A stretch of DNA of 64,000 bases, taken from a virus (lineage: Duplodnaviria > Caudoviricetes). This document shows, one piece after another, positions 20,834-57,767 of this stretch. The position numbers and the translations under genes are program-made. Position 1 is the first letter of the stretch, and every line of letters starts with the position of its first letter. The stretch is taken from IMG/VR virus record IMGVR_UViG_3300028888_000002, one strand, 5' to 3'. Under the pieces are notes generated by a model. That model saw only the letters and a list, made by a program, of their open reading frames with translations, was not told the origin of the DNA and did no database searches.

Positions 20834-21517
20834 TCAAACTCCGATATTCCCGAACAGGTAGAACGGTCCTGTAAGTTGTCGGAGGCGTTGGTTCGCCACG
20901 TCGTAGTATTCCTTGCACAGTTCGGTCCCGATAAACTTTCGGGCTTCCAACACGGCTGCTTCTGCCGTGGTCCCGCTTCCAATGCAGGGGTCAAACACTA
21001 TATCCCCGTGGTTGGAACTAGCCCGTATGAGCCGTCTAAACAGGTCCAGGGGCTTTTCCGTCGGGTGTCGCTTGCTAGACCCGCAGGGGTGTCGCCATAC
21101 GGGGGATTGGCAGAACTCATTGAACGTTGCGTTGGACTTACGCATAAACACGCAGCATTCCACGGACGATAGCCAAAGGTGCTGCCCGTTCATAGGCGAT
21201 GGGTTCGTCTTTTCCCAAATACAGAGCCTTGTAGAAAGCCCCTTGTCAACTCCCGCCTTACGCAGCATAGACACCTGTTCTGTTCCACAGAAAATATAAA
21301 TGCTCCCCTTACAGATACGGATTACCTCGTCCATAAACTTGTCAAGCGGGAACGTTAGAACGTCGGCAGCTTCCTTGTTAATGTGACGCAGCCCGCCTTC
21401 TTCACGGTCGGAACATTCGTCGTAGGGAATATCCGTCAAGACCATATCCACGCAGTTGTCTTCTAGCCTTGCCATATATTCCAGGCAATCCATATTATAG
21501 AGTTTGTTCAATTCCAC
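20834..21517 (-). CDS. DNA N6-adenine/N4-cytosine methyltransferase, beta class (MTase 1)
   Basis: DCLE, TDIPY (motif IV), HPTEKP, DPCIGSGTT (motif I after IV). Confidence 0.9.
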   Translation of the reverse strand: MELNKLYNMDCLEYMARLEDNCVDMVLTDIPYDECSDREEGGLRHINKEAADVLTFPLDKFMDEVIRICKGSIYIFCGTEQVSMLRKAGVDKGLSTRLCIWEKTNPSPMNGQHLWLSSVECCVFMRKSNATFNEFCQSPVWRHPCGSSKRHPTEKPLDLFRRLIRASSNHGDIVFDPCIGSGTTAEAAVLEARKFIGTELCKEYYDVANQRLRQLTGPFYLFGNIGV

Positions 21518-21704
21518 TTTTATACTTTTCCTTTTCGCTCAAAGTTTCAAGCATAGTAATCGGCAGGGTAGCTAACGCTGCAAGTGCCCAGGACACTTCT
21601 TCTTTCGTGATTTCGCCCGACTCAACCATTTTACGTGCTGCGTCCATAGGGGTGCGTGTTTTCACAACAGCGTTCAACTTTTTCCAAAATTGCAGAATAT
21701 CCAT
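21495..21704 (-). CDS. hypothetical protein
   Basis: AAGGA RBS; precedes MTase 1. Confidence 0.55.
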   Translation of the reverse strand: MDILQFWKKLNAVVKTRTPMDAARKMVESGEITKEEVSWALAALATLPITMLETLSEKEKYKSGIEQTL

Positions 21705-21712
21705 AAATCCTT

Positions 21713-21749
21713 AAAATAAAAAGTAGCGGGGCAACACGCCCCACTACTA
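21713..21749 (-). terminator. intrinsic terminator-like hairpin after recA
   Basis: AGTAGTGGGGC..GCCCCGCTACT followed by TTTTATTTT on the minus strand. Confidence 0.7.
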
Positions 21750-21774
21750 CAAATATAGACAGATAACGACCTTT

Positions 21775-23091
21775 TTAGGTTGCGTCTGCTGCGGGTTCGG
21801 CTACGGGTTCGGCAGCAGGCTTTTCAGCGTAGTTGTTGCCGTATTTGGCAGGACGCTTTGTCGCCACAGCGTCTTCGTGTTCTTCCCATTTCGCCCTTAC
21901 ACGTTCTGTGAGTTCCTTCGCCATTTCGGGGTTGTCTTCACACAGCTTAATAAGTTCGTCACGGGTAAATTCTTCGCCAAATTCGTCGTCAAAGTTAGCC
22001 TTGCGTTCGGGGTCTTCGGTAGCCCAACCGATAATCCAATCCACGGAAAGATTAGCGTTGCCTTCCTGGGATTTCTTGTCTTCCCTGCATTCCGCAGTCC
22101 AACCGTTCTTTTCAAGCCACGCTTTAAGGTTGGGGAGGGATTTCTTCTTTGCCGTAGCACTCCAAGCGATAGCGTTAGCAGCCTTTGTGAGCAGCTTGCC
22201 GTCGTCGCCACGCAGGTCAAACAGGTAGTCAATGTTGGAACCGATATTGTCAATACCGTAGTCAAAGTAAGCGGTATAGACGATTTCACGGAACGGACGG
22301 GGTGTCTTTGACTTCGTTGTAACAGCCTTGACGACCACGCCTACCTTTGTGCCCTCACGCTCAATAAATGCGAGCCTGGACAGCTTCAAGCGGGTATGGC
22401 AGTAGAACTCCATAGCGTCACCGTTGCCCGTTTTTTTCTTCGGGGCGAACGCACCCACGGCACCGAAGTTGCAGCGGGTCTGCGACACGATAATGAGCGT
22501 GAGTTTCTTGCGTTCCAACGCCTTGTGCTTGTTACGGAAAAAGTCCTGGGACAAGAACTTTGCGATTTGGGCACCGTAGTCACCGTCGTCCTTGACTTCT
22601 TCACCCTTTGCCTGCTGCTTTGCACGTTTGGCTTCCTTTTCCTTTTTGGTCTTGTCTGCAAGACCGTCCAGGGAGTCCACCGCATAGATACCATACATAT
22701 CTTCGGGCATCCAATTCAGCATATTCGTAAGTTTACCGTCCATTTCTTCAACGGTTTCGGAGTCTTCAAATTTAAGGTTTCCAATCTTACGAACTTCGGG
22801 GTGAATGTTCACACCATACAGGCGTTCGGTCTTGAACGTATCGCCCGTTTCGGAGTCGTCCGACTCCCAAACAAGTTTAGCTTTCGGACCGCCCATAGCC
22901 CAATAGGTTGACGCAATCATTTCGTTCTTGATAAAGGTCTTACCCGCAGAGCTATCGCCCCAAATTTGGATAATGGCACCGAACGGCAAACCATAGACAC
23001 CTTTATCGCCACCAATGAGCAGGTCAAGCAAATCGCTGCCCATACGCACACGGGGTTCTTCCACAACCACGTTTTCTTTCTTTTTAGCCAT
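21775..23091 (-). CDS. recA: RecA/UvsX-like recombinase with a 57-aa C-terminal insertion
   Basis: GSDLLDLLIGG..GLPFGAIIQIWGDSSAGKT (Walker A), AVDSLDGL (Walker B), IIVSQTR, GNGDAMEFY, KSKTPRPFR, YGID. Confidence 0.9.
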   Translation of the reverse strand: MAKKKENVVVEEPRVRMGSDLLDLLIGGDKGVYGLPFGAIIQIWGDSSAGKTFIKNEMIASTYWAMGGPKAKLVWESDDSETGDTFKTERLYGVNIHPEVRKIGNLKFEDSETVEEMDGKLTNMLNWMPEDMYGIYAVDSLDGLADKTKKEKEAKRAKQQAKGEEVKDDGDYGAQIAKFLSQDFFRNKHKALERKKLTLIIVSQTRCNFGAVGAFAPKKKTGNGDAMEFYCHTRLKLSRLAFIEREGTKVGVVVKAVTTKSKTPRPFREIVYTAYFDYGIDNIGSNIDYLFDLRGDDGKLLTKAANAIAWSATAKKKSLPNLKAWLEKNGWTAECREDKKSQEGNANLSVDWIIGWATEDPERKANFDDEFGEEFTRDELIKLCEDNPEMAKELTERVRAKWEEHEDAVATKRPAKYGNNYAEKPAAEPVAEPAADAT

Positions 23092-23105
23092 AGTAATATC
23101 CTGGT

Positions 23106-23157: not shown

Positions 23158-24717
23158 TTACTTCTTGCGAGCCATCAAGCGTTTGCACTTGTCACACTTG
23201 GACCAAATGGCTTCGGGACAACGGCTGCACAAAGGCATTTTTTCACAGTCGGTTCCGAACTCATAACCATTCGGGCATTCGCCTTCGTCCACGTCACGCT
23301 TCGGCACAGACCTCGGAGCGGGCTTTGCAGGCTGTTCTTCGGGCTGTTCGTCGTCAAACGGCATAGTCGGTGCAGGTGCTTCGGAACGGGTCGTTTCTTT
23401 GGACGAATCCTGGTCCACGGCAGTCTTGCGGGAATTGCGACGGGCTGCGGTGTAAGGGTCCGTATTGAAATCGGCTTCGTCAAGGGTAGCGTCTTTCGGT
23501 TCGTTATCCTTGAAGCGGGCAGGGGCTTCGTCCTGTGCAGGGCGACGACGTGCGGGTGCCTCGTCTTCTTCCTGGACGGGGCGACGACGAGCAGGGGCTT
23601 CGTCCTGCGGTTCTTCTGCAACAGGGCGACGACGAGTCGGTGCAGGCTGTTCGTCTTCGGCTTCGTCGGCAACAGGGCGACGACGTGCAGGTGCTTCGTC
23701 CTGCGGTTCTTCGGCAGCAGGACGACGACGTGCCTGTGCGGGCTGTTCGTCTTCTTCAACTTCTGCGTGGCGACGACGATTAGTCGGCTGTTCGTCACCC
23801 ATATCGTCGGACGGGTTGTTATCACGGAAACGTGCAGGTGTAGCCTGTCCTTCGTCGCCTTCGTCGGGCTGATTTTCATAGCCCTCTTCAACGTCGTCGG
23901 GGTCGCCATAAAGAGCAGCTTTAAGTTGGTCGTAGGTCTTAATCACCATCATAGCGTCAAGCGACGGGCACTTTGCGAGAACGTCCGCAGCGATTTCTTC
24001 CTTGCGTTCGTTGAACTCAAAGTTAGCAGCTTTCTTGAATTTCTTGCCGTTGCCCATAGTGTCTTCGTTCACGTTGAACGACACGACACGACCTTCTTCA
24101 ATGGAAGTGTCGGCAAAGTTCACAACGCCCTTGCCACGCATACAGGCGGTGGCACGGTCCTGCAAGTCCTTTGAGAAGACAGCGTGGGACACTTCAAAAA
24201 TCTTCGGGTCTTCGCCCTTGTCGTAAAATTCGTCGGTGAGTTCCTGGACAACGTAAATGCACTTGCGACGGGCAAAGAGCTTGCGGGCTTCGTCCTTTGT
24301 GCGTTCGTCTTTCCAAAGTTCGTCGGCACGTTCGCAAATCGGGCACGGCTTACCGAAGTTTTTCTTCGGGCAAATGTAGTCACCGTTCCCAGGTCCGATG
24401 CGGGTATGCACCATAAGGTCAAGCACGTAATCCAGGTCGCCAACCATAACCTTTGCGGGGTTCGGGTTGCCGTTACGCAGAAATTCGGGTTCGTCCTTTG
24501 TGCGGACAACTTCGGGATGGTTCTTTGTTGCAATCTTCCACGGAAGAATGTTAATGTCGTGGTAAGTGCCAGGGTCGCCCATTTTGAAAAATTTGAGTTT
24601 GGTGGACCCATAGTTCATAAATCCTTGACGGGTTACACCACCGTTGGATTCACGGGTATCTGTTTGCTGTTGGGTGCGACGACCCAGGGACATACGGCTG
24701 CGGTCATATCCTGCCAT
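23158..24717 (-). CDS. T4 gp32-like single-stranded DNA-binding protein with repetitive C-terminal region and terminal Cys cluster
   Basis: H..IG..N..YICPKKNFGKPCPICE zinc motif, long acidic tail, position between uvsY-like and recA. Confidence 0.75.
   Translation of the reverse strand: MAGYDRSRMSLGRRTQQQTDTRESNGGVTRQGFMNYGSTKLKFFKMGDPGTYHDINILPWKIATKNHPEVVRTKDEPEFLRNGNPNPAKVMVGDLDYVLDLMVHTRIGPGNGDYICPKKNFGKPCPICERADELWKDERTKDEARKLFARRKCIYVVQELTDEFYDKGEDPKIFEVSHAVFSKDLQDRATACMRGKGVVNFADTSIEEGRVVSFNVNEDTMGNGKKFKKAANFEFNERKEEIAADVLAKCPSLDAMMVIKTYDQLKAALYGDPDDVEEGYENQPDEGDEGQATPARFRDNNPSDDMGDEQPTNRRRHAEVEEDEQPAQARRRPAAEEPQDEAPARRRPVADEAEDEQPAPTRRRPVAEEPQDEAPARRRPVQEEDEAPARRRPAQDEAPARFKDNEPKDATLDEADFNTDPYTAARRNSRKTAVDQDSSKETTRSEAPAPTMPFDDEQPEEQPAKPAPRSVPKRDVDEGECPNGYEFGTDCEKMPLCSRCPEAIWSKCDKCKRLMARKK
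23515..23790 (-). repeat. tandem coding repeats (E/Q)DE(A/Q)PA(x)RRRP, about 6-7 units, in the SSB tail
   Basis: Repeated GACGAAGCCCCTGC..CGTCGTCGCCCTG units. Confidence 0.8.
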
Positions 24718-25483: not shown

Positions 25484-26428
25484 CTACTTCAAGGACCTGT
25501 AAGCAGCCAGGACAATGCCAGGAAATCCCGTGTCATAGGTGTTAATGGCAAATTCTTCCATAACACGGCAAATGCGGTCACTGCTCTTTTTAAGCAGGAT
25601 AGCGGAGCAGTAACCCAGGACGGCACGACGGATAGTTTCAGCGTCAACGTTGCCCTTGAGTTCCCGCAGGGACTTGTTAATTTCATTCCAGGACGGCTTG
25701 CTGTCACAAAGGGCACGGCAAAGGTCCAGGGTATTCGGGTCGTCTTCAAGACCACCCTCCAGGATTTTCAACTGTGCTTCAACGTCGTTGGGGCTTGCCA
25801 TAACCTTTTCAAGTGCAACCAGGGCAGCACGGGGCGAGCCGTCGGCAGATTCAATGATAGCCGTAAGAACCTTGTCGTCCACTTCAAACTTTTCCGCTTC
25901 GGCAGTCCGCAGGACCAACTTGCCCAACTGTCGGGCGTTGAGCGGTTCTAGCTTCCATTGGGTGCTGCGGGTGGCGAGAGCCTTACCCTCGTCGCCTTTA
26001 AGCAACTGCTGTAAGTTCGTTGTGCAGAAGAAGAAATAGACGTGGGCGGGCATATCCTCGGTAGGCTTCAAGAATGCACGTTTAGCGTCTGCGGTCATAC
26101 CGTGGGCTTCGTCAATGATATAGACCACGGACCTGCCTTTAAGGGGCAGAGAACGCATTTGGTCCCTAATGTCACGGACGGTATCAATGCCACGGTTGTC
26201 GGACGTATTGATTTCGTGAATGCTGAAATCGGGGTCAGCGTGAAGCAGCTCCGTAGCGATAATGCGGGCGATTGTGGTCTTGCCTGCACCGCTAGACCCG
26301 TAGATAATGTGGCAGTGCGACACACGCTTCGGGTCCTGTGCGAAATGGGTTTGAATGGCATTGATTACCTCGGTGTTGCCTACCATATCGGCAAACGTCT
26401 TCGGGCGATACACTTGATAAAGTGACAT
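25484..26428 (-). CDS. dnaX: clamp loader, DnaX gamma/tau-like AAA+ ATPase
   Basis: SLYQVYRPKTFADMVG, GSSGAGKTT, RGIDTVR, IIDEAH, AFLKPTE, GSPRAAL. Confidence 0.9.
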   Translation of the reverse strand: MSLYQVYRPKTFADMVGNTEVINAIQTHFAQDPKRVSHCHIIYGSSGAGKTTIARIIATELLHADPDFSIHEINTSDNRGIDTVRDIRDQMRSLPLKGRSVVYIIDEAHGMTADAKRAFLKPTEDMPAHVYFFFCTTNLQQLLKGDEGKALATRSTQWKLEPLNARQLGKLVLRTAEAEKFEVDDKVLTAIIESADGSPRAALVALEKVMASPNDVEAQLKILEGGLEDDPNTLDLCRALCDSKPSWNEINKSLRELKGNVDAETIRRAVLGYCSAILLKKSSDRICRVMEEFAINTYDTGFPGIVLAAYRSLK

Positions 26429-26429
26429 A

Positions 26430-26835: not shown

Positions 26836-27090
26836 TTACGTGTTGACGGGTTCGGCACCCGTGTATTTTTGCAGCAGGCGTTCCACTTCGTTTTTGAAAT
26901 CAAGAACGTCGTTCTGCAACGGCACGGTCCCCGTATATTTTTTGAGAAGTTCATAGCATAACGATTCTGTCGTAATGTTATCCAGGACCGAAGCAGTGTC
27001 CGTCGGGAGCCTGTCAAGGTTATCAAGGGCTTCGGTAACTACCGCTTGAATATCGCCCAGGTATTTCTTTGCAACTTCAAAGTTATTCAT
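26836..27090 (-). CDS. hypothetical protein, paralog of the C-terminus of 26430..26789
   Basis: Shared L.N...E...L...TG..P....VL..K...E.LL..KY pattern. Confidence 0.65.
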   Translation of the reverse strand: MNNFEVAKKYLGDIQAVVTEALDNLDRLPTDTASVLDNITTESLCYELLKKYTGTVPLQNDVLDFKNEVERLLQKYTGAEPVNT

Positions 27091-27127
27091 AGGTTGGTTT
27101 CCTTAATAGGTATATAGTCGTATGGTG

Positions 27128-27910
27128 TCAAATTCCGATATTGCCGTAAATGTAGAACGGTCCCGTCAAGTCCCGCAGACGCTTGTTTGCCACTTCGCAG
27201 TATTCGGTATTTGTTTCAAATCCGATAAATTTGCGGTTTTCCATAACCGCAGCGACGGCAGTAGTCCCGCTACCCATACAGTTATCCAGGACCACTTCGC
27301 CAGGATTCGTGTAGGTTCTCACCAGGTATCGGATTAGGTCAACGGGCTTTTCCGTCGGGTGCAATTTGTTGGCGTGGACGGGCGTAAAGCTAATGATAGA
27401 TACGGGGTGTTTGTCCGTATAGACATTCTGCTGTTTAGCCATTGTATTCTTATGCAGCAGCCCGCAGGTGTTAAGCCCCCCGCCATTTCGCACGGGAACG
27501 TCCCGTAGGGTCTTTTGGGGATAATACCGCATAGAGTGACCGTTGTTGGTGAAACAAGCACTGCTCTTGCTGAATACGCTAATCAATTCGTGGATTCTAC
27601 CGCATTGGTAGTTCATTAGCTGAAAGTTGCTAGGCTTTTCCTTGTTCCAAACCCAATCGTAACGATACATAGCCACGTTGCTCGCACGTAGCAGGCTGCT
27701 GAATGGTTCGGAACCGAACAGGACAATAGCCCCATCTTCACGGATAACCCGCTTATACTGTTCCCACAGCGGTTCAAACGGGATAACAGAATCCCACTTG
27801 CAGGCGGTAGTCCCGTAAGGCAAATCGCAGATTATACAGTCAACGGAGCCGTCGGGGATTTCTTTCATACCCTCCAAACAGTCCATATTGTAAATGCGGT
27901 TCAAATCCAT
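27128..27910 (-). CDS. DNA N6-adenine/N4-cytosine methyltransferase, beta class (MTase 2)
   Basis: DCLEGM, CDLPYG, HPTEKP, DNCMGSGTT. Confidence 0.92.
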   Translation of the reverse strand: MDLNRIYNMDCLEGMKEIPDGSVDCIICDLPYGTTACKWDSVIPFEPLWEQYKRVIREDGAIVLFGSEPFSSLLRASNVAMYRYDWVWNKEKPSNFQLMNYQCGRIHELISVFSKSSACFTNNGHSMRYYPQKTLRDVPVRNGGGLNTCGLLHKNTMAKQQNVYTDKHPVSIISFTPVHANKLHPTEKPVDLIRYLVRTYTNPGEVVLDNCMGSGTTAVAAVMENRKFIGFETNTEYCEVANKRLRDLTGPFYIYGNIGI

Positions 27911-27913: not shown

Positions 27914-28726
27914 CTATACTCCAATGTTTCCGTAGATATAGAACGGACCCGTCAAATCCCGCAGACGCTTGTTCGCCTTGTCAAAGTAATCCTTGTCGGT
28001 TTCAAACCCGATAAACTTACGGTTCTCTAAAACTGCTGCAACAGCAGTCGTCCCGCTACCCATACAGTTATCCAAAATGGTATCACCTGGATTTGAGTAG
28101 GTGCGGACAAGATAACGGATTAGCTCCACAGGTTTCTGTGTCGGGTGGAAGCGTTGGTCCAGGTCGCTCTTGTATTCCTTTGAGTAACTTTGGCAGTGCG
28201 GGATTTTCGCACATACTACGCTAATCGGATAGCGGGTTCCGTCTTCCTGCGGACGGGTCCTGTGCATAGACCCATAGATATTGTTCCCGATAAATTCATT
28301 GTCCTTAAAGGTCTTTCGCTGCGTGAGAAATTCCTTTTTATCCACAAGCCATTTCTGCGGGTTGAACGTAGGCTTCCCCGATTTGGAAAACACAATAATG
28401 TTTTCGTGAAGTTTAAGGTGCTTACTATCCTTGCTGAAACCCGAAGCAGGTTTGTTTTTGAGCCAACACAGTTCTTCCCTAAATTGGGAAATGTTGCTGC
28501 TAATGAGCATACTTGTAAACGGCTGCGAGCCGAACAAAATAATCGGGGCGGTATCTTTACAGATACGGTGGTATTGCTCCCACAGCGGTTCAAACGGAAT
28601 AACAGAATCCCAGGCACAAGAGGTCGTGCCATAAGGTAAATCACAAATGACACAATCCACCGTTCCGTCGGGAATTTCTTTCATTCCAACCAGGCAGTCT
28701 TCGTTATAAATTCTGTTCAGTTCCAT
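27914..28726 (-). CDS. DNA N6-adenine/N4-cytosine methyltransferase, beta class (MTase 3)
   Basis: Start MELNRIY; CDLPYG, HPTQKP, DNCMGSGTT. Confidence 0.92.
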   Translation of the reverse strand: MELNRIYNEDCLVGMKEIPDGTVDCVICDLPYGTTSCAWDSVIPFEPLWEQYHRICKDTAPIILFGSQPFTSMLISSNISQFREELCWLKNKPASGFSKDSKHLKLHENIIVFSKSGKPTFNPQKWLVDKKEFLTQRKTFKDNEFIGNNIYGSMHRTRPQEDGTRYPISVVCAKIPHCQSYSKEYKSDLDQRFHPTQKPVELIRYLVRTYSNPGDTILDNCMGSGTTAVAAVLENRKFIGFETDKDYFDKANKRLRDLTGPFYIYGNIGV

Positions 28727-28727: not shown

Positions 28728-31412
28728 TCAATGTGCAGCCTCAAACTTCGCCTGCCAATTTTCGGGCATACCCTCGGTCCGCAAGGCTCCCACTTCTGTC
28801 ATTTTAGCCCAGGACCCGTCAACGTAAGACGCATCGGCTTCAATGACAAGCGGAACGCAAATCCACGGAAATTCTTCGCTTACACGCTTCACACCGTTGC
28901 CATAGACAATCTTCGCCACCTTGTCTTCTTCGCCCTCTTTAACGAGAGCAATAATAGCGTCGTGAATTTGTCCGATAATGCAGGAAAGCAAGCCCTGGGA
29001 CTTGAAGTCCTGCAAGTCGTAGGTCAATGCTCGCAGCAAGATATGGAACGCAGACCCTTGAATGCAGCAGTTCGTAGCCTGGGTGTAGCCCATAGGTCCC
29101 CAACAGCGGAAACCCGTGTAGGACTGCACATAGCCCATCTTTTGATAGCGGTCCCATTCGGTCCTACGCCACGCATTATAGACCTTGAAGCGTTGGTTCC
29201 AAAATATATCGTCGCCTTTCTTGACGTGTGCTTCCCACTTTTCGTAGGTCGTAATCTTGTGGTCCTTTGCCAAATGTTCCTTCGTGTAGGCAGGCATATT
29301 GTTCCACATATTTCGGGCACACGACTTGTAGGACGCACCGTAGAACGACGAGAACACATAGCCCGATTTGATAGACGAGCGTTCTTCCTTTGTAAGTTCT
29401 TCGGGCGTTCGGATATACATATCGCAAGCAGTATCACGGTGCATATCCGAAGCGGGGTTCTGCAAGTAGTGAATCATCTGCGGGTCGTGGTGATAGCTTG
29501 CGGACACCATAACTTCCAGGGACTTGTAGTCCATTTCCATAAAGCGGTAGCCCTTTGGAGCCACGAACAACGTTCGCAGGATTTTCTTCATTTCCTTATC
29601 ACGCTTCGGAATGTTTTGAAAGTTCGGGCTGTCAGCCGACGAACGGTAGGTTCGGGGACCCGCATCGTCTTCACCGCCCGCACCCGTTGACAGGTTAAAG
29701 AACGGACGGATTAGGTAGGCTTGCTTTTCTTCGTCCCATACGGCTTCACGTCTGTAGCCATCCAGGAAGTCCATAATCTTTGCCCAACGACGCATTCCCA
29801 AAATGGACTTGCAGAACGGGGTTCCCAACTTTTCCAGGGTGTCGCCCGTAGCGTCTTCCTTACCCGAAGGCGGTTTCAGCTTGCAAATCTTGTAAAGGAC
29901 TTCGGCAATTTGTTTGTTAGAGAGCGGGTTGAAAGTTTCGCCAGGGTGCAGCTTGCACCACTGCTTCGCTTCGTCGGACGCTTTGACGGCTTCTTCGGAT
30001 TCCTTGAACTTGTCTTCAAGTTCCTTTTGCAAGTCGTTAATCCTGCCATAGTCAATCGGCAAACCCTCGGACTGCACACGGGCGAGAGCGTCCATACCTT
30101 TCATAAAGAAGCGGAACGACTTTTCAAGACCAACCATCTGTGCGGACTGAATGTCACGCAGCGGGAGCGTATAAATGGAGTCAAGACCGCAATAGTAGAT
30201 AATGTCGCCTTTGGGGACACCCACGCCCTTTTTGAGCAGGTTAAAGGCGTTGCAGCTCTTTGTGTCTTCCCCGTCCATAATCGTAGAAATGAAATGGTCC
30301 GCTTTGTTGTCGTAGCCGATAACGCCCAATTCACAGTAGGTGTGGAATTTCAGCCCAACCTTTTGGGAGTTGTCTAGGACGTGGGCACCCAGGCAAGTGT
30401 CCCAGGACCAATTATCAATCCAATCTGTGCGGGAGTTATGCAGACCCGCCCTAAACCTGGTCCAACAGGCTTCATAGTCAGCCTTGTGTGCAACCAACCC
30501 TATTTTCTTGTGGTGCGTGAGTTTATACCAGGCATTCACCAGGCGTTCGTTGTCACCGTCCCACCAAATACCGATAGCGTGATACTCACCGTCCTTACGA
30601 TAGCCGACGGACGCAGCCTTGATTTCGTGACCTGCACGGTGGGGTTTCAAGCCCGTGGTTTCGTAATCAATGGAAACGTCGTGATAGCCTTCGGGAGCCT
30701 TGTCAAGTTGGTCTGTTTCAGCCCATTCAATGATTTCTTCAATCCAATCGGCTGCGGTGTCTGCATCGCCTGTGGTGCGAACGTCCGTCGGTATTTTCGG
30801 CAGCGGGGTATCTTTTATTTGATAGGCTAGACGGATATGCTGCGAGAAATACATATACGGGCAACCGTCGTCACGCTGCCAGGTCAAAAATTCGGGCGAG
30901 TAGGTCGGGCAAATCCAACAGTTGTAGAAGCGGTCGGGAATGCGTTTACCGTAAAGGTCCGACGGCTTCGTGTTGCCGATACGTCCGCTCATACGGTCCC
31001 AAATAAGTGCCTGGATAGCTGCGGGACCCATAGGAATGATTACGTTCGGCTTCAATTCGTTAATGAGCCTGTTCAAGCGTTCCTTGCAACAGTCGGGCTT
31101 CGGGTCCTTGTCGTTTTGACACGGGCACGGGATTACATAACCAATCCAGGCGGATTCCAGGAAATCCCTGGGCAGTCCACGCCTACCCTGCAAGTCCCAA
31201 AGATAATCATACATTTTATGTAGGAACACCGTGTCGTGGTCGTTGCCTTCCTTTCCACGGGGGTGGTCGCACAGGAACAGAACCTTGTCCTTGCCCTTAC
31301 CCGCAAACGGTAAATCCTTGCCCGATTGGTCTAATCCGCAGGCTAGACAGCCTGTAAGTTTCGGCTTCGCTGACATTGCTTGAATGGCAGCGGGAATTTT
31401 GAAAAAGCCCAT
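28728..31412 (-). CDS. polA: family A DNA polymerase with N-terminal UDG-family-4-like domain and 3'-5' exonuclease
   Basis: CLAC..CC UDG-like N-terminus; DYETTG exo I; RSSADSPNFQNIP; motif A DYKSLE; motif B RSSIKSGYVFSSFYG; motif C IHDA. Confidence 0.92.
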   Translation of the reverse strand: MGFFKIPAAIQAMSAKPKLTGCLACGLDQSGKDLPFAGKGKDKVLFLCDHPRGKEGNDHDTVFLHKMYDYLWDLQGRRGLPRDFLESAWIGYVIPCPCQNDKDPKPDCCKERLNRLINELKPNVIIPMGPAAIQALIWDRMSGRIGNTKPSDLYGKRIPDRFYNCWICPTYSPEFLTWQRDDGCPYMYFSQHIRLAYQIKDTPLPKIPTDVRTTGDADTAADWIEEIIEWAETDQLDKAPEGYHDVSIDYETTGLKPHRAGHEIKAASVGYRKDGEYHAIGIWWDGDNERLVNAWYKLTHHKKIGLVAHKADYEACWTRFRAGLHNSRTDWIDNWSWDTCLGAHVLDNSQKVGLKFHTYCELGVIGYDNKADHFISTIMDGEDTKSCNAFNLLKKGVGVPKGDIIYYCGLDSIYTLPLRDIQSAQMVGLEKSFRFFMKGMDALARVQSEGLPIDYGRINDLQKELEDKFKESEEAVKASDEAKQWCKLHPGETFNPLSNKQIAEVLYKICKLKPPSGKEDATGDTLEKLGTPFCKSILGMRRWAKIMDFLDGYRREAVWDEEKQAYLIRPFFNLSTGAGGEDDAGPRTYRSSADSPNFQNIPKRDKEMKKILRTLFVAPKGYRFMEMDYKSLEVMVSASYHHDPQMIHYLQNPASDMHRDTACDMYIRTPEELTKEERSSIKSGYVFSSFYGASYKSCARNMWNNMPAYTKEHLAKDHKITTYEKWEAHVKKGDDIFWNQRFKVYNAWRRTEWDRYQKMGYVQSYTGFRCWGPMGYTQATNCCIQGSAFHILLRALTYDLQDFKSQGLLSCIIGQIHDAIIALVKEGEEDKVAKIVYGNGVKRVSEEFPWICVPLVIEADASYVDGSWAKMTEVGALRTEGMPENWQAKFEAAH

Positions 31413-31532: not shown

Positions 31533-32630
31533 CTATTTGGTAGCGGTCGCACCCTGGACGAACTGCATAAATTCGCCCGATTGGAAAACAAGGGACAAGG
31601 ACGGGGGAGCCGTCGGGTCCATATCCATATAGCAAAGGGTAAAGTCCATAACCTTGTTGGACGCTTCCAACAAGAACGAAGTGTTTACCCAAACTTCGGT
31701 GTTCTGCGGGTCTTCTTCAAGTTCGGTTTCCCACGGGATAGTTTCGGACGCTTCACCGCCTGTCTTTTCGGCATACAGTTCAAGTTCGTCCTTACGGAAC
31801 GTCAAACGCACCATACGGGCATTCTTCTTGTCAACGCCCGAAGCCAGGATAGCCACACGGGACACGGCTTCTGCGATATTGTTCGGAAGACGACCCTTGA
31901 CGAGAACCTTTGCTTTTTCAAATGCGGTCGGGAACGTAGAAAGACCGTCAAACGGATATGCTACGTGGTCCTTACGCTTTGCAGAAAACACGGTGCCGTC
32001 GGCATACTTGAGGTGCAACCAGGCATCGCTTACGCAGTAGCCCGTCGGGGTGCCCACCTTGAAAGCGTTGTTGAACACCGTATCGTCAACCCAAAACGGG
32101 TCCATACGTTCGGACAACTTGTTAATGCAGACACGCACGGAGTCGGTTTCATAGACTGCGGAGCCTTCGCCATAGTCATTCACTGCAACGCCACGGATAT
32201 TTTCAGCGTTACCCGAAAGATTACAGATATTCACAGCGTCAATGAATGCTTCGGGGAGGGGCTTGTATTCAAGCGACACCACGTTAAGGTCACGAATAAG
32301 GTTCATTACTTTGGACGAATCCTGGAGGGTCATAGTAGCCTTTGTGCGACCCGCCTTGATTTTAACCTTTGAGTCCACGACTTCAAGCGACAAGGTAACG
32401 TCGGACATACGGGAAACAAGGTTAAAGAAGTCCGCACCCTTTACAGAGAACGAAACGTTCTGCGTGTCGCACGGGGCAGACACAGCGATTTCGCTGTTGT
32501 AGGAACTGACAGACGCACCCGTGAAAAGAAGGAGGTCCGTGCCGTCAATCAAAGTGTTGCCTGTTTCAACACCAGGCATTACCTTTTTGAGAGATTCAAT
32601 GAGTTTAGCTTTTTCAATTTGGATTGCCAT
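31533..32630 (-). CDS. sliding clamp, DnaN/beta-like (clamp 1)
   Basis: 365 aa; I.K..L..SL..V, SYNSEIAVS, F.V....F.NLV, ETDSVR, YPF, AVSRVAILA; next to the polymerase. Confidence 0.75.
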   Translation of the reverse strand: MAIQIEKAKLIESLKKVMPGVETGNTLIDGTDLLLFTGASVSSYNSEIAVSAPCDTQNVSFSVKGADFFNLVSRMSDVTLSLEVVDSKVKIKAGRTKATMTLQDSSKVMNLIRDLNVVSLEYKPLPEAFIDAVNICNLSGNAENIRGVAVNDYGEGSAVYETDSVRVCINKLSERMDPFWVDDTVFNNAFKVGTPTGYCVSDAWLHLKYADGTVFSAKRKDHVAYPFDGLSTFPTAFEKAKVLVKGRLPNNIAEAVSRVAILASGVDKKNARMVRLTFRKDELELYAEKTGGEASETIPWETELEEDPQNTEVWVNTSFLLEASNKVMDFTLCYMDMDPTAPPSLSLVFQSGEFMQFVQGATATK

Positions 32631-33337: not shown

Positions 33338-34819
33338 TTATCTACGGGGGCGACCGCCACGGCTACCCGTGCGTCTTCCCGTCCGTCTTGCGGGCATACT
33401 GTCTTCGTCTTCGCTGCCGTCCCATTGTTCTTCCTGGCTCATATCCACACGGGACAACAGTTCGCATTCCATATAAGGTCTGCCGATAGCCAAACAGGTG
33501 GTGCAGACAACAGAATCCTGGACGGGGGCACCGTCACGGGTCGTATTGCAGGCAAGGCGGGTAATGCCACGCTTCTTTTCTGTGGGCGTGTGGTTAATCG
33601 TAATCATTTTGGTTACGTGAGCCACCTTTCGTATATCTTCGGACACCTGGTTTTCGGCTGCGTCCTGTTCGCCACCCACGGTAGCACGTCCCGTTTGGGA
33701 AACGGTTGCGAGCATACACTTACGGGTGCTTGCAAGACCACGAAGGGCTTTCCAACAGCGGTTAATCTTTTCACGTTCGTCGCTGCCAGGTCCCAGGTCC
33801 ATAATGTCTGCGTAGTCCACGCAGATAACTTCGGGTGCCCAACCGTTATAGACTTCCATATCCTTGAGTTCGGCTTCAAGACCCTTTACAGACAGGGTGC
33901 CTGTCGGGAACGTTCGCAGCTCAAACTTGTCGTTACGGGTAATCTTTCGGAACGCAGCCTGGGCTTTCTCAATGCCCTCAATGCTTGCGTCCACCCTATG
34001 CGACGGTTCGCTAACGTCGGCAAGTTGAGCGTTGCCCTCGTCGTCATAGACCATAACGGGATAATGCAATTCTTCGCCATAGCGGGACGACCCCGTAAGC
34101 ATTTGCCAAAATCTACGGACAACCTGCTTTTCGGACATTTCTAGCGAAACGTAAAGGACGTGCTTTCCCTGCAACGCAGCCTGGACCGCAATAGTCATAA
34201 GCCACCAGGTCTTACCGCTTTTCGGTGGACCGATAACGGCTACGAAGTCTTCCTGGATAAATGGACCGATTACGCTGCCCAGGACACCAGGCATTGTAAA
34301 GATTTCTTCTTCCTCGTTGACGAAAGCGTTGGCGATTGTGGCAGCGTCCCTAAACAGGTTCACGACCTGTGCCTGTCGCACGTCGGGCTTCGTAAATTCC
34401 GCAATAGCGTGATACCCGCTAGATACGTCCCCGTTTTGAATGGCACGGTTCAATTTTTCCGTTAGCAAGACCAGGGTGCGTTTCTGCAAATACTTGATAG
34501 CATTGTCGGTAGCCAGGGCTTCGTTTGTCGGCAACCATTCGTCGGACGCAGTGTCAAGAAAAGCCTTGACCATTTCCCCGTCGGCTTCTTTGAGTTCCGT
34601 ATAACGGTTGGCGTAAATGTCACTAATTGCCGTCTTCGGTGCTTCGCCATAGCGGTCATAGAAAGTCAAGACCCACGACGAAACAATCTTGCCCATATTG
34701 CTTTCAAACAGGATAGGGTCACACGACTTTCGGCATTTAGCCAAAAGGGGCGTGGACATAATCATATTCGCTAAAAGCCTACGTTCTTCGCTTATATCTA
34801 CTTTTTGGCGTTGGAGCAT
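33338..34819 (-). CDS. DnaB-like replicative helicase
   Basis: GPPKSGKT, YVSLEMS, VICVDYADIM, LRGLA, TVSQT, SEDIRK. Confidence 0.88.
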   Translation of the reverse strand: MLQRQKVDISEERRLLANMIMSTPLLAKCRKSCDPILFESNMGKIVSSWVLTFYDRYGEAPKTAISDIYANRYTELKEADGEMVKAFLDTASDEWLPTNEALATDNAIKYLQKRTLVLLTEKLNRAIQNGDVSSGYHAIAEFTKPDVRQAQVVNLFRDAATIANAFVNEEEEIFTMPGVLGSVIGPFIQEDFVAVIGPPKSGKTWWLMTIAVQAALQGKHVLYVSLEMSEKQVVRRFWQMLTGSSRYGEELHYPVMVYDDEGNAQLADVSEPSHRVDASIEGIEKAQAAFRKITRNDKFELRTFPTGTLSVKGLEAELKDMEVYNGWAPEVICVDYADIMDLGPGSDEREKINRCWKALRGLASTRKCMLATVSQTGRATVGGEQDAAENQVSEDIRKVAHVTKMITINHTPTEKKRGITRLACNTTRDGAPVQDSVVCTTCLAIGRPYMECELLSRVDMSQEEQWDGSEDEDSMPARRTGRRTGSRGGRPRR

Positions 34820-34853: not shown

Positions 34854-37076
34854 TTAGCGACCAAACCTGGCACCCTTGCGTTCCAGGATTTCTGTCAGCA
34901 AGTCGGTGGAAGCGGTTTCCTTTCCGTCCAAAACGCCATCAAGCATTTTCGCCCTAGCGTCCAGGACTTCAATGGCTTCCATATCCACGGTTCCAGGTGC
35001 TACAAGATAGTAAGAAGTGACGGAGTTATGCTGCCCCGACCTGTGCAGACGGTCTTCTGCCTGCCTGTGGAAGTTCGGGGTGTGCGAAAATTCAGCGAAA
35101 GCCACATCGGAGCAGACTTCCTGGAAGCCGTCAATGCCGACACCGCCCGCCTGGATATTGGCGACGATTACACGGCACTTTGGGTCGTTAATGAACTTCT
35201 TACGGGTTTCTTCACGTTCCGTGGCGGTCATACCGCCATAGATAATCGCAGGGCTGTAATCCTTGAGCGTGTCATAGAGGACTTCCACGACGGAGCGGTG
35301 CCACGCAAACAGCAGCAACTTCTTGTCCGATTCCAGGAAGTCTTCAATCCACTGCAACATAGACTTCTCTTTGAGAGCGTAGGCGGTTCGGAGCAGGTGG
35401 GCGACCTTATTGCGGGCGTTCTCACGTTCGCCCTTGATAGTTTCACCCGAAAATGCGATACGTTCCTCTTCGTAGTAATCGTCCATAGCGGATTGGTCCA
35501 CTTCAAGCGGGACGACTTCCATAACTTTGGGCGGGAGGTCTTTCATTACTTCGTTCTTCGTCCTGCGGAGCATACAGCGGACAAGCAGTTCGTGGAGTTC
35601 TTCCACATTGGACGCACCGTTGAACTTTACCCTGCCATAGCTGTCAGTCTGCGGGTCACAATACCTGTTCTTGAACATATAGAAGTTCTTGAACATAGAC
35701 GGCTCCACGATAGAAAGCAGCGTCCAAAACTGCATAGGCTTTGACATAGCGGGCGTTCCGCTCATACCGATACAGTGCGGGATAATCTTTGAGAGTTCCT
35801 TGAAAGCGATAGCTCTTTGAGAGTCGGGGTTTCCGATAGCCTGCACTTCGTCGCCTACAAGCAGACGGAACCCAACCTGGGCAAGCGGACCATCGCACAC
35901 GTAGAACACGTTGGTTTTACCGTTGCGTTCGGTGGACTCAAAGTGCCCCGCCCAATCCGAAAGCACGTCCCAATTTATGATATAGCTCTTATACTTTGAC
36001 AGCGGGTGCGGGGTCTTACCGCTCAACACTTCAACGTCGGGATAATGCTTCTTTGTAGCCCCTACCCATTTCCTATACGCTTCCTGCCACTGCAACTTCG
36101 TAGGGGCGTTCACCACATAAAGAGCGGGATAGGCATTCGCATAGACCATCCAGGACAACGCTTCTACGGTCTTACCGCAGTTGTGGACGACTGTATGGTT
36201 CGCAACAAAGTTCCCGAAATTCAGCACCTTTACGTCGTAGGTCATTCGCATTCCTGCGGACGTGATAGACACGACTTTCGCCATAGCGGACTTGCCGTCC
36301 CTTTCAACCTGGACGTATGCGTTCAAGGTGTCCTTGATTTCGGTCCAACCACTATCCGTAAGCACCTTATGGTCGGGCGTGGCAATAATGTAGGTATCGT
36401 CTTCAAGGGTAGCGTGGACGCAGCGTTTGATACCGCTTTGGATAACGTCCACGACTTCACCCATACCCAACGTATGCCCGTCTGCCAACAAACACTGAAT
36501 ATCCCAATCGCACGTCCCCTTTGTCCTGGCGAAAGCACGATACAGGGATTCCAGGGAAGTCTTGCGGGTCTTCCCGTTATTTCGGACGGTCACGGTCATA
36601 TCGCCACAGACGCAACCCATTTCGTCGCCCAGGGCAAGGCGACCGTGACGGAGCTGTGCGAACTTCAAGAAATCAATTTGGTAAGAACGCAGCCCAGGAA
36701 TAAGGGTTCCTTCGGGGTCCAACTTCGTAGCGTCAATCTTTGCCTGCTGCTTAACACGGGGGTCTTCACGCTTTTCGTTGGGGTCCTTTTCTTTCGGGGG
36801 ATTTGTCCAACCCGAAGCCTCCATCCAGGTCTTCGTCCCAATGTTCCAGGGAACTTCCCATTTTTGAGTCGCAGCGTTGTATTGACGTTCGGGCAGCTTG
36901 CGAACGCCTTCAAGAACTTTCTTCCAGGCATCCTTGTTATACGTGAACCAGGTCAACGCCACAATGGACTTGTCAACTTTCGTAAATTCGGCTTCATATC
37001 GCACACCCGCAATAGGTTCAATGGGCGTGGGGGCACGGCTCAATCTGTCCGACAAGCCAATAAGGTCATAACTCAT
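34854..37076 (-). CDS. SNF2/SMARCAL1-like helicase with HARP-like N-terminus and mini-intein
   Basis: LRSYQ, DEMG|CGKT, DEVQ, MSGTP, LRRTK, AGGVGID, QAEDRLHRSGQ. Confidence 0.9.
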   Translation of the reverse strand: MSYDLIGLSDRLSRAPTPIEPIAGVRYEAEFTKVDKSIVALTWFTYNKDAWKKVLEGVRKLPERQYNAATQKWEVPWNIGTKTWMEASGWTNPPKEKDPNEKREDPRVKQQAKIDATKLDPEGTLIPGLRSYQIDFLKFAQLRHGRLALGDEMGCVCGDMTVTVRNNGKTRKTSLESLYRAFARTKGTCDWDIQCLLADGHTLGMGEVVDVIQSGIKRCVHATLEDDTYIIATPDHKVLTDSGWTEIKDTLNAYVQVERDGKSAMAKVVSITSAGMRMTYDVKVLNFGNFVANHTVVHNCGKTVEALSWMVYANAYPALYVVNAPTKLQWQEAYRKWVGATKKHYPDVEVLSGKTPHPLSKYKSYIINWDVLSDWAGHFESTERNGKTNVFYVCDGPLAQVGFRLLVGDEVQAIGNPDSQRAIAFKELSKIIPHCIGMSGTPAMSKPMQFWTLLSIVEPSMFKNFYMFKNRYCDPQTDSYGRVKFNGASNVEELHELLVRCMLRRTKNEVMKDLPPKVMEVVPLEVDQSAMDDYYEEERIAFSGETIKGERENARNKVAHLLRTAYALKEKSMLQWIEDFLESDKKLLLFAWHRSVVEVLYDTLKDYSPAIIYGGMTATEREETRKKFINDPKCRVIVANIQAGGVGIDGFQEVCSDVAFAEFSHTPNFHRQAEDRLHRSGQHNSVTSYYLVAPGTVDMEAIEVLDARAKMLDGVLDGKETASTDLLTEILERKGARFGR
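36180..36614 (-). mobile_element. mini-intein (145 aa, no homing endonuclease) in the helicase Walker A motif
   Basis: Starts CVCGDMTV (block A), ATPDHKVLT (block B TxxH), TYDVKV..NFVAN (block F), VVHN|C (block G). Confidence 0.92.
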
Positions 37077-55319: not shown

Positions 55320-55584
55320 TAGTCACCCCCATTTGCTTATACAGAACTGCGTAAATCGTCCCTTCAACCGCAGAGTGTTCGCCCAAGATACGTGTAGCGA
55401 CACACTTCTTACCCGACGTAGTTTCGTAAACAGAAACGTAGTAGAGGCAAGTAATACCTGCTTTACCCTTTTTGGTAGTGAACGACCTGCCGTCAATCGT
55501 GAACTCAAAAATTCCGTTGGCATCGTCGCATTTCGTCATAACGATATTCTTGTAGAACCAATCGTTAAATTCGTTCCTATTCAT
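55312..55584 (-). CDS. early hypothetical protein
   Basis: Start MNRNEF after the cassette 7 RBS. Confidence 0.7.
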   Translation of the reverse strand: MNRNEFNDWFYKNIVMTKCDDANGIFEFTIDGRSFTTKKGKAGITCLYYVSVYETTSGKKCVATRILGEHSAVEGTIYAVLYKQMGVTNV

Positions 55585-55587
55585 TTT

Positions 55588-55680
55588 GCTATCCTCGGTT
55601 GAAGTGGTTGTCTTCTCTTTACGTCTATAATATAACAAATTACCTGCTCTTTGTAAACAGGTAATTTAAAATTTTTTAAA
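55588..55680 (-). promoter_or_regulatory. early promoter cassette copy 7
   Basis: TTTACA(55657-55652)-17bp-TATATT(55634-55629); AATTACCTG-N11-CAGGTAATT. Confidence 0.8.
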
Positions 55681-55681
55681 A

Positions 55682-56914
55682 TTATTTACGCAGGGCTGCG
55701 TATTCGTCGGGATAGGCTTTCTGTATCGCTTCTTCGGTAATCGTGTAGGTCTTAATCCCGTCGGCAGCATATACCTCGTTCAAGCGGGTCGCTGCGTCGG
55801 GATAAAGTTTCATAAGCACGTCTAGCTTCGTGTTGGGGTCTTCGCCATAGAGAGTAGCCAACCGCATAACGCCACACTTCATTTGCAGGTCGTAAAGTTC
55901 TGCACGGGTGAGTTTCTTCGGCTTCTGTTCTTTGGGGACGACCACGGCAGTTTCGTCGTGGGAGCCATCAGCAGCAGCGTCAAGGTGGACGCTTGACACC
56001 TGTTCAGCGGTAATAACGGGCTTACCCGTTTCTTCCACGACCTGCTTTGCTTCTTCCACGTTCTCAACCACGGGAAGTTCCTGGGGTTCTGCGGGCTTCA
56101 CTTCAAGCACGGTATCGTGGTCTTCAAGGAACCTCACGGATTCGGAAGCGTCCACGGTTTCGGGTTCTGCGGGCTTCGCCTTAATTTGCAGGTCAATATG
56201 GTCCACGGCATTGGTGGCAACCGCTTGAACGTCCACAGTAAGCGTCCCGTCTTCGGACAGGTCCTTGATTTCCTTGCTGACAACCTGCATTTCGGGGTGA
56301 ACCAGGGTGGTTACGGTTTCTGCTGTTTCCAGGACGCTTTCCTTGACATCTTCGGGAATGTCTGCGACGCTTACGGGTTCCTTTGGCGGGTAGTTCTCAT
56401 AAGACGGTGCCAGGGCTTCCAGGCATTCGGCTTCGTTCTTGATTAGCCCGCTAGGTATCGGGTCAAGAACACCCAGGGTTTCGTCCACAATCGGGGCTTC
56501 GGGTTCTTCCTGCGGTTCGGCTATCGGCTGTGCAATCGGTGGACCTGGGGGGATAGAGGTCTGCACACAGTCGGGACCCGCCAACAGGCAATCGCAGGTG
56601 TCCTGTTCCTTTTGTGACGGCTCCACCGTTTCTGCCTGCTTTTCGCAAACTTCGTCGGAGCCGAGGACATTGTTCAAGGCTTCCATAAGTTCTTCAAACG
56701 TAGTGCCCGTGAACGGCTTGTAAAGCACCATAATGTTGGTGAGTTCCAACATACCGTTATCGGCTTTCTTTTCGTCGTAGCAAAGCCCAAAGACAGGGTA
56801 TTCCCTGTGTTTAATCTTGCTGCCGTCTTCGGCAACCGTGCCCTTAACGTCAGCCTTGTAGTTGGCACGGGCAAAGTAGCGAAGGTCTTTGGATTGTTTC
56901 TTCGTAATGAGCAT
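55682..56914 (-). CDS. acidic Glu/Pro/Val-rich hypothetical protein
   Basis: Long low-complexity middle with folded-looking termini. Confidence 0.7.
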   Translation of the reverse strand: MLITKKQSKDLRYFARANYKADVKGTVAEDGSKIKHREYPVFGLCYDEKKADNGMLELTNIMVLYKPFTGTTFEELMEALNNVLGSDEVCEKQAETVEPSQKEQDTCDCLLAGPDCVQTSIPPGPPIAQPIAEPQEEPEAPIVDETLGVLDPIPSGLIKNEAECLEALAPSYENYPPKEPVSVADIPEDVKESVLETAETVTTLVHPEMQVVSKEIKDLSEDGTLTVDVQAVATNAVDHIDLQIKAKPAEPETVDASESVRFLEDHDTVLEVKPAEPQELPVVENVEEAKQVVEETGKPVITAEQVSSVHLDAAADGSHDETAVVVPKEQKPKKLTRAELYDLQMKCGVMRLATLYGEDPNTKLDVLMKLYPDAATRLNEVYAADGIKTYTITEEAIQKAYPDEYAALRK

Positions 56915-56918
56915 AGTC

Positions 56919-57767
56919 TTAAACTCCAATGTTGCCGTAAATGTAGAACGGACCCGTGAGTGCTTTCAAGCGGGCGTTCGCTTTTTCATAGTAGGTCTTG
57001 TCCGTTTCAAAACCTATAAACTTTCGCTTTTCCATAACCGCTGCGATAGCGGTTGTCCCGCTACCCATACAGTTGTCCAGGATTACTTCGCCTGGATTAG
57101 TGAACGTCCGTATAAGGTATCGGAGCAGTTCAACGGGCTTCTGCGTCGGGTGCAGGACCGTGGATTCGTGTTCACGCTGAATAGCGATAATGCTTCGGGG
57201 CAGCTTCTTACCGACGGGCACGGTCGCTTCAACACGCTTAACGCTATCGTATGTCCTGCCCTCGTAATCACGCCCGAAGTCCTTTTTGGGCGGGTCGCTC
57301 AAATTCAAATGTGCCCCGTAGCAGTTGTTGGTCTGCTTATGAGGACCGCTTCCACGGGAGTGGTTAATCGGACCGTCTTCATACTGCGGGTTGTAGGTCG
57401 GCAGGGACTTGTAGAACACGGCAATGTCTTCGTGGCAACGCATAGGCATTCGGTTGGCATTGAGAAAGCCCGTCACCCTGCACTTGTCCCATACCAGGTT
57501 GTAACGCCACAGCTTTTCGTTTGAGAGCATAAGTTTGGCGGTAAACATTCCCTGGCAAAACAACAGGATAGCCCCATTATCCTTGATTACACGTTCATAC
57601 TGTGCCCACAGCGGTTTAAAAGGAATAATCCTATCCCATTGGGCGTTCGGGTTATTCTTATGCAGGACTTCATAGGGCAAGTCACAAATAATAGCGTCAA
57701 TGCTGCCGTCGGGGATTTCTTTCATACCCTCAAGGCAGTCCATATTGTAAATTCGGTTTAGGTCCAT
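56919..57767 (-). CDS. DNA N6-adenine/N4-cytosine methyltransferase, beta class (MTase 4)
   Basis: DCLEGM, CDLPY, HPTQKP, DNCMGSGTT. Confidence 0.92.
   Translation of the reverse strand: MDLNRIYNMDCLEGMKEIPDGSIDAIICDLPYEVLHKNNPNAQWDRIIPFKPLWAQYERVIKDNGAILLFCQGMFTAKLMLSNEKLWRYNLVWDKCRVTGFLNANRMPMRCHEDIAVFYKSLPTYNPQYEDGPINHSRGSGPHKQTNNCYGAHLNLSDPPKKDFGRDYEGRTYDSVKRVEATVPVGKKLPRSIIAIQREHESTVLHPTQKPVELLRYLIRTFTNPGEVILDNCMGSGTTAIAAVMEKRKFIGFETDKTYYEKANARLKALTGPFYIYGNIGV

Follow-up and report, generated by a model that had tools for sequence, protein, structure and literature searches.

Why should one phage carry four DNA methylases that begin and end alike and differ in the middle, and how did the differences come about? 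The question is raised by a stretch of 64,000 nucleotides, here called the window, from a tailed phage (Duplodnaviria; Caudoviricetes) in IMG/VR, virus record IMGVR_UViG_3300028888_000002, which has four genes for beta-class amino-methyltransferases, MT1 to MT4. A preliminary description of the window had proposed that these form a panel of stand-alone enzymes, and that their target recognition domains (TRDs) are reassorted among the four resident copies by the phage's own RecA/SNF2 machinery to keep pace with host restriction. We retain the panel and propose another origin for its diversity: a fluid set of imported orphan methylases, exchanged nearly whole at conserved termini, to which a C-terminal peptide specific to the phage lineage is added. 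Taken as a whole we think this account reasonably likely. The four genes are as follows.

MT1, 20834-21517, minus strand: 227 amino acids, GTG start, motif IV DIPY; locus A, downstream of the RecA-like gene
MT2, 27128-27910, minus strand: 260 amino acids, motif IV DLPY; locus B, second of the tandem pair behind polA
MT3, 27914-28726, minus strand: 270 amino acids, motif IV DLPY; locus B
MT4, 56919-57767, minus strand: 282 amino acids, motif IV DLPY; locus D

The four enzymes and the replacement of MT2

The recognition of these four genes as beta-class methyltransferases with conserved ends and differing middles was borne out at the coordinates above. The open reading frames (ORFs) are intact, with zero internal stops, and at locus B they are tightly packed, with a single base between the polA stop codon and the ATG of MT3 and three bases between MT3 and MT2. 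All four match PF01555 (N6_N4_Mtase) over profile positions 1-220/221, with 93.8 bits for MT1, 108.9 for MT2, 113.7 for MT3 and 108.6 for MT4 against a gathering cut-off of 26.7 bits, and all four match phrog_67, "DNA methyltransferase". The N-terminal M(D/E)LN(R/K)(I/L)YNxDCL and the C-terminal HPT(E/Q)KP...GSGTT...RKFIG are found in each, in the permuted motif order of the beta class, with D[IL]PY at residues 29-32 and with HPT(E/Q)KP and GSGTT within the last 80 residues. The variable segment had been taken to start after the W.K strand; this can be refined, as a further conserved motif, HE.I.VF.KS, comes after that strand and ahead of the truly variable part. In MT1 the long insert between motif VIII and HPTEKP is missing.

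MT2 has sequence matches in the PDB to M.MboIIA (1G60, over residues 2-247, E 2e-18) and also to M.RsrI, CcrM and M.BceJIV. Its AlphaFold2 (AF2) model, made with 88 homologues, has a mean predicted local distance difference test (pLDDT) value of 91.8 and a core of alternating strands and helices, and confidence is lowest at the variable stretch, residues 116-181. As modelled, MT2 has the methyltransferase fold with a variable target recognition region between motif VIII and motif X.

Pfam and PHROGs scans of the neighbouring genes, several of them small and unannotated, found no nuclease or restriction-enzyme family beside the methylase genes, which for that reason look like orphans; a classical restriction-modification system was rejected, as no nuclease was found. 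The four are most likely stand-alone beta-class enzymes that look active and, judged by motif IV, are of the N6-adenine type. The panel of stand-alone methylases with different recognition regions thus stands, on the differing middles and the orphan neighbourhood, and we consider it highly probable.

What moves is seen in a 97%-identical relative, G001, which has polA at 100% identity, flanks at 96-98%, near-identical MT1, MT3 and MT4, and a different enzyme at the MT2 locus. This is the sole direct replacement that we have seen, and its extent was taken from identities in windows of 30 nucleotides (nt) and from blastn.

Part of MT2 replaced in G001, 27146-27861, minus strand

Read in the direction of the gene, identity between the window and G001 is 93-100% to 27862 (codon 16), 23-63% at 27801-27356 and 60-80% at 27355-27146, and it is 100% from 27145 on, that is in the last six codons of MT2. 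The replacement covers nearly the whole gene, codons ~17-254 of 260, and not the TRD alone. With breakpoints at codons ~16 and ~254 the TRD cannot be kept as the exchanged unit, as had been supposed.

The preliminary description had suggested looking across related phages for alleles on the move, and this comparison gave alternative enzymes at one locus, breakpoints in the conserved ends, and enzyme types present at different loci. G005 carries the MT2 allele of the window, and in three relatives (L009, L011 and L012) MT3 and MT2 are missing exactly from start codon to stop codon. The number of PF01555 genes per relative ranges from 0 to 7: G002 (99% complete) has seven, in three tandem pairs and a single gene of the MT4 type, and G003 (100% complete) has none. 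G002 and G003 are virus records of 215.3-215.7 kb, and another relative, of 216.3 kb, was found in a metagenome scan; a megablast search with the two methylase regions against deposited phage genomes gave zero matches, and no cultured near relative. Across the relatives the cassettes occupy at least seven intergenic sites of the replication module.

Some genes keep their place. Orthologues of MT1 are 99.6% identical in G001 and 94.7% in L014, and those of MT4 are 87-99% identical in G001, L102, L103 and G002. Others are of the same type at a different site: G002_B2 and L014_A3 are 89% identical, L010_B and L014_A2 87%, and G002_C2 and L015_E2 83%. In the first of these pairs identity is 84-100% in mid-gene and 58-76% at the ends, and between MT4 of the window and its counterpart in L102 it is 64% over the C-terminal segment C2 (residues 223-246) and about 90% elsewhere. 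That termini should be more diverged than middles in enzymes of the same type is the opposite of what protein conservation would give, and it fits crossovers in the termini. We judge cassette exchange at the termini to be likely.

The ends of the cassettes have a feature of their own. A shared motif, TTGAC(G/A)C.AT...CTATAT(A/T), is present at gene ends in the window (20800-20840, 27090-27135 and 57768-57800) and in L012 (12670-12720). The stop codon TGA sits within its TTGAC, and the next ribosome-binding site is about 15-20 nt further on. The motif resembles a promoter or leader of the phage itself, and it coincides with the exact boundaries of cassette presence and absence.

The middles come from outside the four genes. 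Each of the four has full-length relatives, through the variable middle, in unrelated phage contigs, at identities of 53-74%.

MT1, best foreign relative: L016, 53% over residues 3-216
MT2, best foreign relative: L182 3983-4789, 60%
MT3, best foreign relative: L182 3162-4001, 59%
MT4, best foreign relative: L105, 74% over residues 1-267

In L182, a contig of 413 kb, the MT3-like gene sits directly upstream of the MT2-like one, which is also how MT3 and MT2 are arranged. Since the foreign relatives extend through the middle, the diversity appears to have been imported and not made in place, and from the sequences we read MT1 to MT4 as different imported enzyme types and not as products of shuffling among residents.

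The comparison by segments gives the same division. Besides C2 we use N2 (residues 33-95) and TRD (residues 96-181), and the conserved segments N1 and C1. MT4 and its foreign relative in L105 are 81% identical in N1, 85% in N2, 74% in TRD, 83% in C1 and 42% in C2, while MT4 and MT2 are 43% identical in N2, 30% in TRD and 67% in C2; against all its own paralogues MT4 has 16-43% in N2 and 23-30% in TRD. N2 thus co-varies with TRD. For separation of lineage from foreign sequences, with seven lineage types scored, the area under the curve is 0.90-0.96 for C2, a moderate 0.68-0.77 for N1 and C1, and 0.26-0.53, no signal, for N2 and TRD. In a tree of the middle segments the lineage enzymes require 7-9 origins, and the approximately unbiased (AU) test rejects placing 27 of them together (difference in log-likelihood 331, p = 1e-6). 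The variable part and the rest thus disagree, with polyphyletic middles and a C-terminal part that is specific to the lineage.

The account that we favour runs as follows. Each methylase probably modifies a different motif on newly made phage DNA, and several host restriction systems would be blinded at once. Across the lineage whole cassettes are gained, lost, replaced and moved among the seven or more intergenic sites. The breakpoints are located at the conserved start of the gene, within ~16 codons, and in its last ~6-40 codons, and imported enzymes end up with the C-terminal module of the lineage.

The C-terminal tail and its possible partner

That module reads RKFIGFE...AN.RL..LTGPFx[IL][YF]GN[IL]G, and its last part, which we call the tail, is located beyond the Pfam domain. 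All 27 distinct tail-bearing methylases of the lineage, of about 14 types, end in L-T-G-P-F-x-[IL]-[YF]-G-N-[IL]-G with one to three residues more, and they do so independently of motif IV, the tail being found with DLPY, DIPY, DPPY and SPPY. The tails in the window read LTGPFY[IL][YF]GNIG[VI].

MT1 tail, 20837-20875, minus strand: LTGPFYLFGNIGV
MT2 tail, 27131-27169, minus strand: LTGPFYIYGNIGI
MT3 tail, 27917-27955, minus strand: LTGPFYIYGNIGV
MT4 tail, 56922-56960, minus strand: LTGPFYIYGNIGV

None of 272 foreign methylases has the tail. The complete G002 has the pattern that encodes it exactly seven times, each methylase gene ending in one copy; G001 has four copies and G003 has none. Among the matches listed from the metagenome scan, at least 12 are in a methylase-like ORF one or two residues from the stop, all of this lineage, and at least 72 other in-frame matches resemble the tail in bare pattern only.

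The invariant residues of the tail are written with 2-6 synonymous codons each, which argues for selection on the peptide and not on the DNA. Position 6 tracks the genome and not the enzyme type, again with synonymous variation: it is Y in the window, G005, L014, L102 and three of the four G001 genes (C in the fourth), H (with one R) in G002, and R in L007, L010 and L103. Change in concert of this sort suggests either a common partner or conversion between copies. In the AF2 model of MT2 the last helix, residues 235-249, is followed by the tail as coil with a pLDDT of 67. Selection on a peptide tail explains the conserved C-terminus better than the need for a recombination handle does, and we lean towards the tail being a functional docking peptide. 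It would most likely dock all the methylases onto one partner specific to the phage.

A pointer to the kind of partner comes from the foreign homologues. At the position of the tail, QxxLF-COOH endings (QLTLF, QPSLF, QLSLF and others) occur in 24 of 145 foreign sequence clusters, compared with 8 of 1796 other reading frames in the same loci. In bacteria QL[SD]LF is the motif through which proteins bind the beta clamp. For phage Mu, a preprint describes a motif close to this consensus and demonstrates that it binds the clamp. Other methylase endings are specific to a genome: five K[KTQ]LF in L182, five KLF/CLF in L032, six L[FW] in L119 and three QEILL in L059. Arrays of 3-6 tandem PF01555 methylases are present in the unrelated large phages L182 (413 kb), L119 (363 kb), L032, L059, L147 and L108; within each such array the C-terminal endings are alike, QxSLF also being among them.

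The second pointer is the position of the cassettes. The replication module occupies 20-42 kb of the window, all on the minus strand, and comprises the following genes.

RecA-like, 21775-23091, minus strand
gp32-like, 23158-24717, minus strand
Clamp-loader-like AAA+, 25484-26428, minus strand: PF13177 DNA_pol3_delta2, 52 bits; syntenic in distant relatives
Family A polymerase (polA), 28728-31412, minus strand
DnaN-like clamp 1, 31533-32630, minus strand: 365 amino acids, PF02768 at 28.3 bits (cut-off 27); directly upstream of polA-MT3-MT2
DnaB, 33338-34819, minus strand
SNF2, 34854-37076, minus strand
DnaN-like clamp 2, 39282-40391, minus strand: 369 amino acids, match to the beta sliding clamp 6MAN at residues 23-310, E 2e-6
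Primase, 40655-41587, minus strand

Clamp 1 has 32 homologues in related phage contigs. The two diverged clamps, the clamp loader and the family A polymerase are kept in relatives, including G003, which is free of PF01555, and in G002 two methylase cassettes directly adjoin the orthologue of clamp 2. No clamp of the gp45 type (PF02916) was found in G001-G003. The neighbours of the methylase genes also include a coiled-coil protein and proteins of no known function. That both DnaN-like clamps and the clamp loader are encoded between sites occupied by cassettes favours tethering, as do the foreign endings, and clamp 1 and clamp 2 are candidate partners of the tail. The favoured partner would be the phage's DnaN-like clamp or its replisome, by which methylation would be coupled to replication. 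A complex prediction for clamp 1 and clamp 2 with the last 68 methylase residues gave a score of 0.04, below the mark, and counts neither for nor against binding. For the clamp as partner we go no further, in our analysis, than a tentative suggestion.

The suggestion can be put more generally: phage methylase arrays may carry docking peptides specific to a genome, LTGPFx[IL][YF]GN[IL]G in this lineage and QxxLF or xLF-COOH in many other phages. Each imported enzyme would have to acquire the local peptide, and the peptides would tether the orphan methylases to a sliding clamp, either that of the phage or that of the host. This too is speculative, with the balance of probability against it. If true it would be a viral counterpart of the coupling of DNMT1 to PCNA, in which new DNA is methylated on leaving the fork, and it would account for the conservation of gene ends while enzyme bodies are swapped. 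Eukaryotic DNMT1 has a PCNA-binding motif (PMC9690074). In the literature covered, which leaves out most subscription journals, we found neither a DNA methylase of phages or bacteria described as having a clamp-binding motif nor a description of a tail common to methylases.

Three further observations concern this region. The SNF2 helicase gene has a weak match, at residues 260-299, to an intein splicing domain (28 bits, below cut-off), with a faint hit also in the distant relative L261. The gene downstream of MT4 (55682-56929, minus strand) has a probable ATG start (MLITKKQSK...) 9 nt past a GGAG, in place of the listed TTG, and its product is acidic and matches no family. Lastly, in distant relatives, with clamp 1 at 50-57% identity, other DNA-modification genes are present at the corresponding sites.

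Modification genes of distant relatives: L263 7800-10004 and 20274-20933, L261 7346-8068 and 9713-9979; C5 methylases (one apparently split), a helicase-PF01555 fusion of 734 amino acids, and a Mom-like gene behind RecA

With C5 methylases, a helicase-methylase fusion and a Mom-like gene among their occupants, the sites are general hot spots for DNA-modification genes.

An alternative to an outside partner is that the tail acts within or between the methylases themselves, as a dimerisation hairpin, as a contact in a heteromeric "methylosome", as an autoinhibitory peptide, or as a degradation signal that times their activity. The tail is found on methylases only and once per gene, as this would have it, and by sequence F-x-I-Y-G-N-I-G-V resembles a beta-hairpin with a G-N turn. 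The solved beta-class enzymes M.MboIIA, M.RsrI and CcrM, the PDB matches of MT2, function as dimers. However the foreign homologues have clamp-type QxxLF/xLF ends at the equivalent position, the cassettes have genes for clamps, clamp loader and polymerase around them, and the AF2 monomer model leaves the tail unpacked. We regard such a role of the tail as unlikely, if still a serious contender.

Several points weigh against our account of imported enzymes with a docking tail. Apart from the methylases, neither the window nor G002 has a protein with the tail, and a search of non-methylase proteins in the window, G001-G004, G006 and two more distant relatives found it on none, only on methylases of the lineage; if the clamp is the partner, other clients of the clamp must then bind it differently. 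The tail does not fit the QL[SD]LF consensus, which is met only in the foreign homologues. The downstream ribosome-binding site puts some constraint on the last three codons of the tail: in two cases, including MT4 (ATT GGA GTT), the final codons ATT GGA GTx double as the GGAG site of the next gene, so that part of the constraint on the tail is at the DNA level. With regard to the ends, a quick tree of them puts 27 of 28 lineage genes in one clade, with a value of 97 in the Shimodaira-Hasegawa-like approximate likelihood ratio test (SH-aLRT), but this tree is weak, since a constrained tree joining the MT4 group with foreign sequence scored higher and was not rejected; the claim of lineage-specific ends rests for that reason on C2 and the tail. 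For most of the divergent termini no donor of at least 90% identity was found, the signals in the donor search being weak and tandem neighbours being the best match in two cases, at 83-87%. Finally, we infer from sequence both the target motifs and the assignment to N6-adenine and not N4-cytosine methylation.

Resident shuffling and ordinary paralogy

The explanation first proposed for the locus was that the phage's own recombination machinery reassorts only the TRDs, among the four resident genes, makes new combinations within a genome and so tracks host restriction. There is a case for it. The flanks are conserved and the middles variable, the RecA-like and SNF2 genes that it calls on are indeed both in the window, one pair of short enzymes (83% identical) differs mainly at an internal patch, codons ~58-105, and TRD movement at conserved motifs is documented for the type III mod genes of Helicobacter pylori (PMC3467074). 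The blocks of DNA identity that had been offered as evidence of exchange are also real. All three are found exactly as described: that at 27266/28052/57057 encodes NCMGSG, that at 27763/28579 encodes PFEPLW, and that at 27849/57706 encodes EGMKEIPD.

The blocks are however not strong evidence. The longest exact DNA match between paralogues is 0-27 nt, depending on the pair, and was compared with a null in which the proteins were kept fixed and synonymous codons re-drawn from the phage's own codon usage. Matches of the observed length had P = 0.017-0.023 in two pairs (MT2/MT4 and MT2/MT3) and P = 0.07-1.0 in the remaining four, so the identity blocks of 18-27 nt are only marginally above the codon-resampled null and can be put down mostly to conserved motifs and not to fresh recombination. 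In the shared ends of MT2, MT3 and MT4 amino-acid identity is 73-100% and third-codon identity 33-78%. With synonymous sites diverged and blocks near the null there is no sign of recent exchange among the resident copies, and this part of the preliminary description is not supported.

The arrangement of the genes is a further difficulty. The four are direct repeats, spaced by 0.8-29 kb and separated by replication genes. Essential genes would be lost if two of the copies crossed over reciprocally inside a single genome, so any exchange would have to be by conversion or between co-infecting genomes. Add that the one direct replacement takes in codons ~17-254, and that the middles travel with their own N2 and have full-length foreign relatives, and TRD shuffling among residents becomes improbable. 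An invertible, shufflon-type switch was also considered and was rejected, as all four genes are on one strand; the genes that were scanned with Pfam and PHROGs gave no match to a recombinase family, and no dedicated search for inverted repeats was made.

Least probable of all, and in our view very improbable, is that these are ordinary old paralogues in which nothing moves, the ends being catalytic and S-adenosylmethionine-binding motifs and the tail a neutral leftover of one ancestral gene: N1 and C1 are indeed family-wide and conserved in foreign enzymes too (81% and 83% between MT4 and L105), synonymous sites of the paralogues are largely diverged and the DNA blocks come close to what chance would give with the phage's codon usage, but this reading is contradicted by the rejected monophyly of the middles, by precise presence and absence, replacement and the occurrence of one type at different sites, and by the many synonymous codons and concerted position 6 of the tail, which speak for selection or conversion and not for neutrality.

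Relation to known systems

The nearest characterised proteins are the PF01555 beta-class enzymes M.MboIIA (1G60), M.RsrI (1EG2), CcrM (6PBD), M.BceJIV (8URK) and M1.HpyAVI/DpnA (5HEK). The methylases of the window are like them in motif order and in matching the Pfam profile at full length, and differ in having DLPY or DIPY in place of DPPY, in having no partner restriction enzyme, and in the 12-residue tail specific to the lineage.

Carrying multiple orphan methylases is an already known route by which a phage gets around restriction. Several in one jumbo phage genome have been read as escape from several restriction systems (Iyer et al., PMC7824862); the likeness is in the multiple stand-alone enzymes and the presumed escape. 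What differs here is a pool of about 14 types spread over at least seven sites of the replication module and sharing one common tail.

In the type III mod genes of Helicobacter pylori, TRDs move when DNA that encodes conserved motifs recombines; the trees of the parts disagree there, and distant organisms have homologues (Furuta & Kobayashi 2012, PMC3467074). Our locus is similar in that the enzymes are of the beta class, recombination is in motif-coding DNA, trees disagree, one variable part occurs at different loci, and there are homologues in distant organisms. However in H. pylori it is the TRD alone that moves, and in bacterial restriction-modification systems, whereas here it is the near-whole gene, in phage orphans, and what stays with the lineage is confined to the extreme ends, chiefly some 38 residues (~38) at the C-terminus. 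With a moving unit of this size the locus lacks one defining feature of TRD movement in H. pylori.

In the case of clamp-binding motifs, as in QL[SD]LF clients and DNMT1, the tail is similar in being a short C-terminal peptide on a DNA methylase, modelled as coil, with clamp genes nearby. It differs in that LTGPFxIYGNIG is off the consensus, and clamp binding is putative.

What is new here is how large a pool of cassettes is found in the replication module of a phage, and the selected tail that runs through the whole lineage. The locus offers a natural, well-sampled case of turnover in a methylase repertoire, and methylome engineering can draw new specificities from its cassettes. If the tail does tether the enzymes to the replisome, it would give a testable principle for how methylation is completed before packaging, and a means to predict which methylases of a phage work together.

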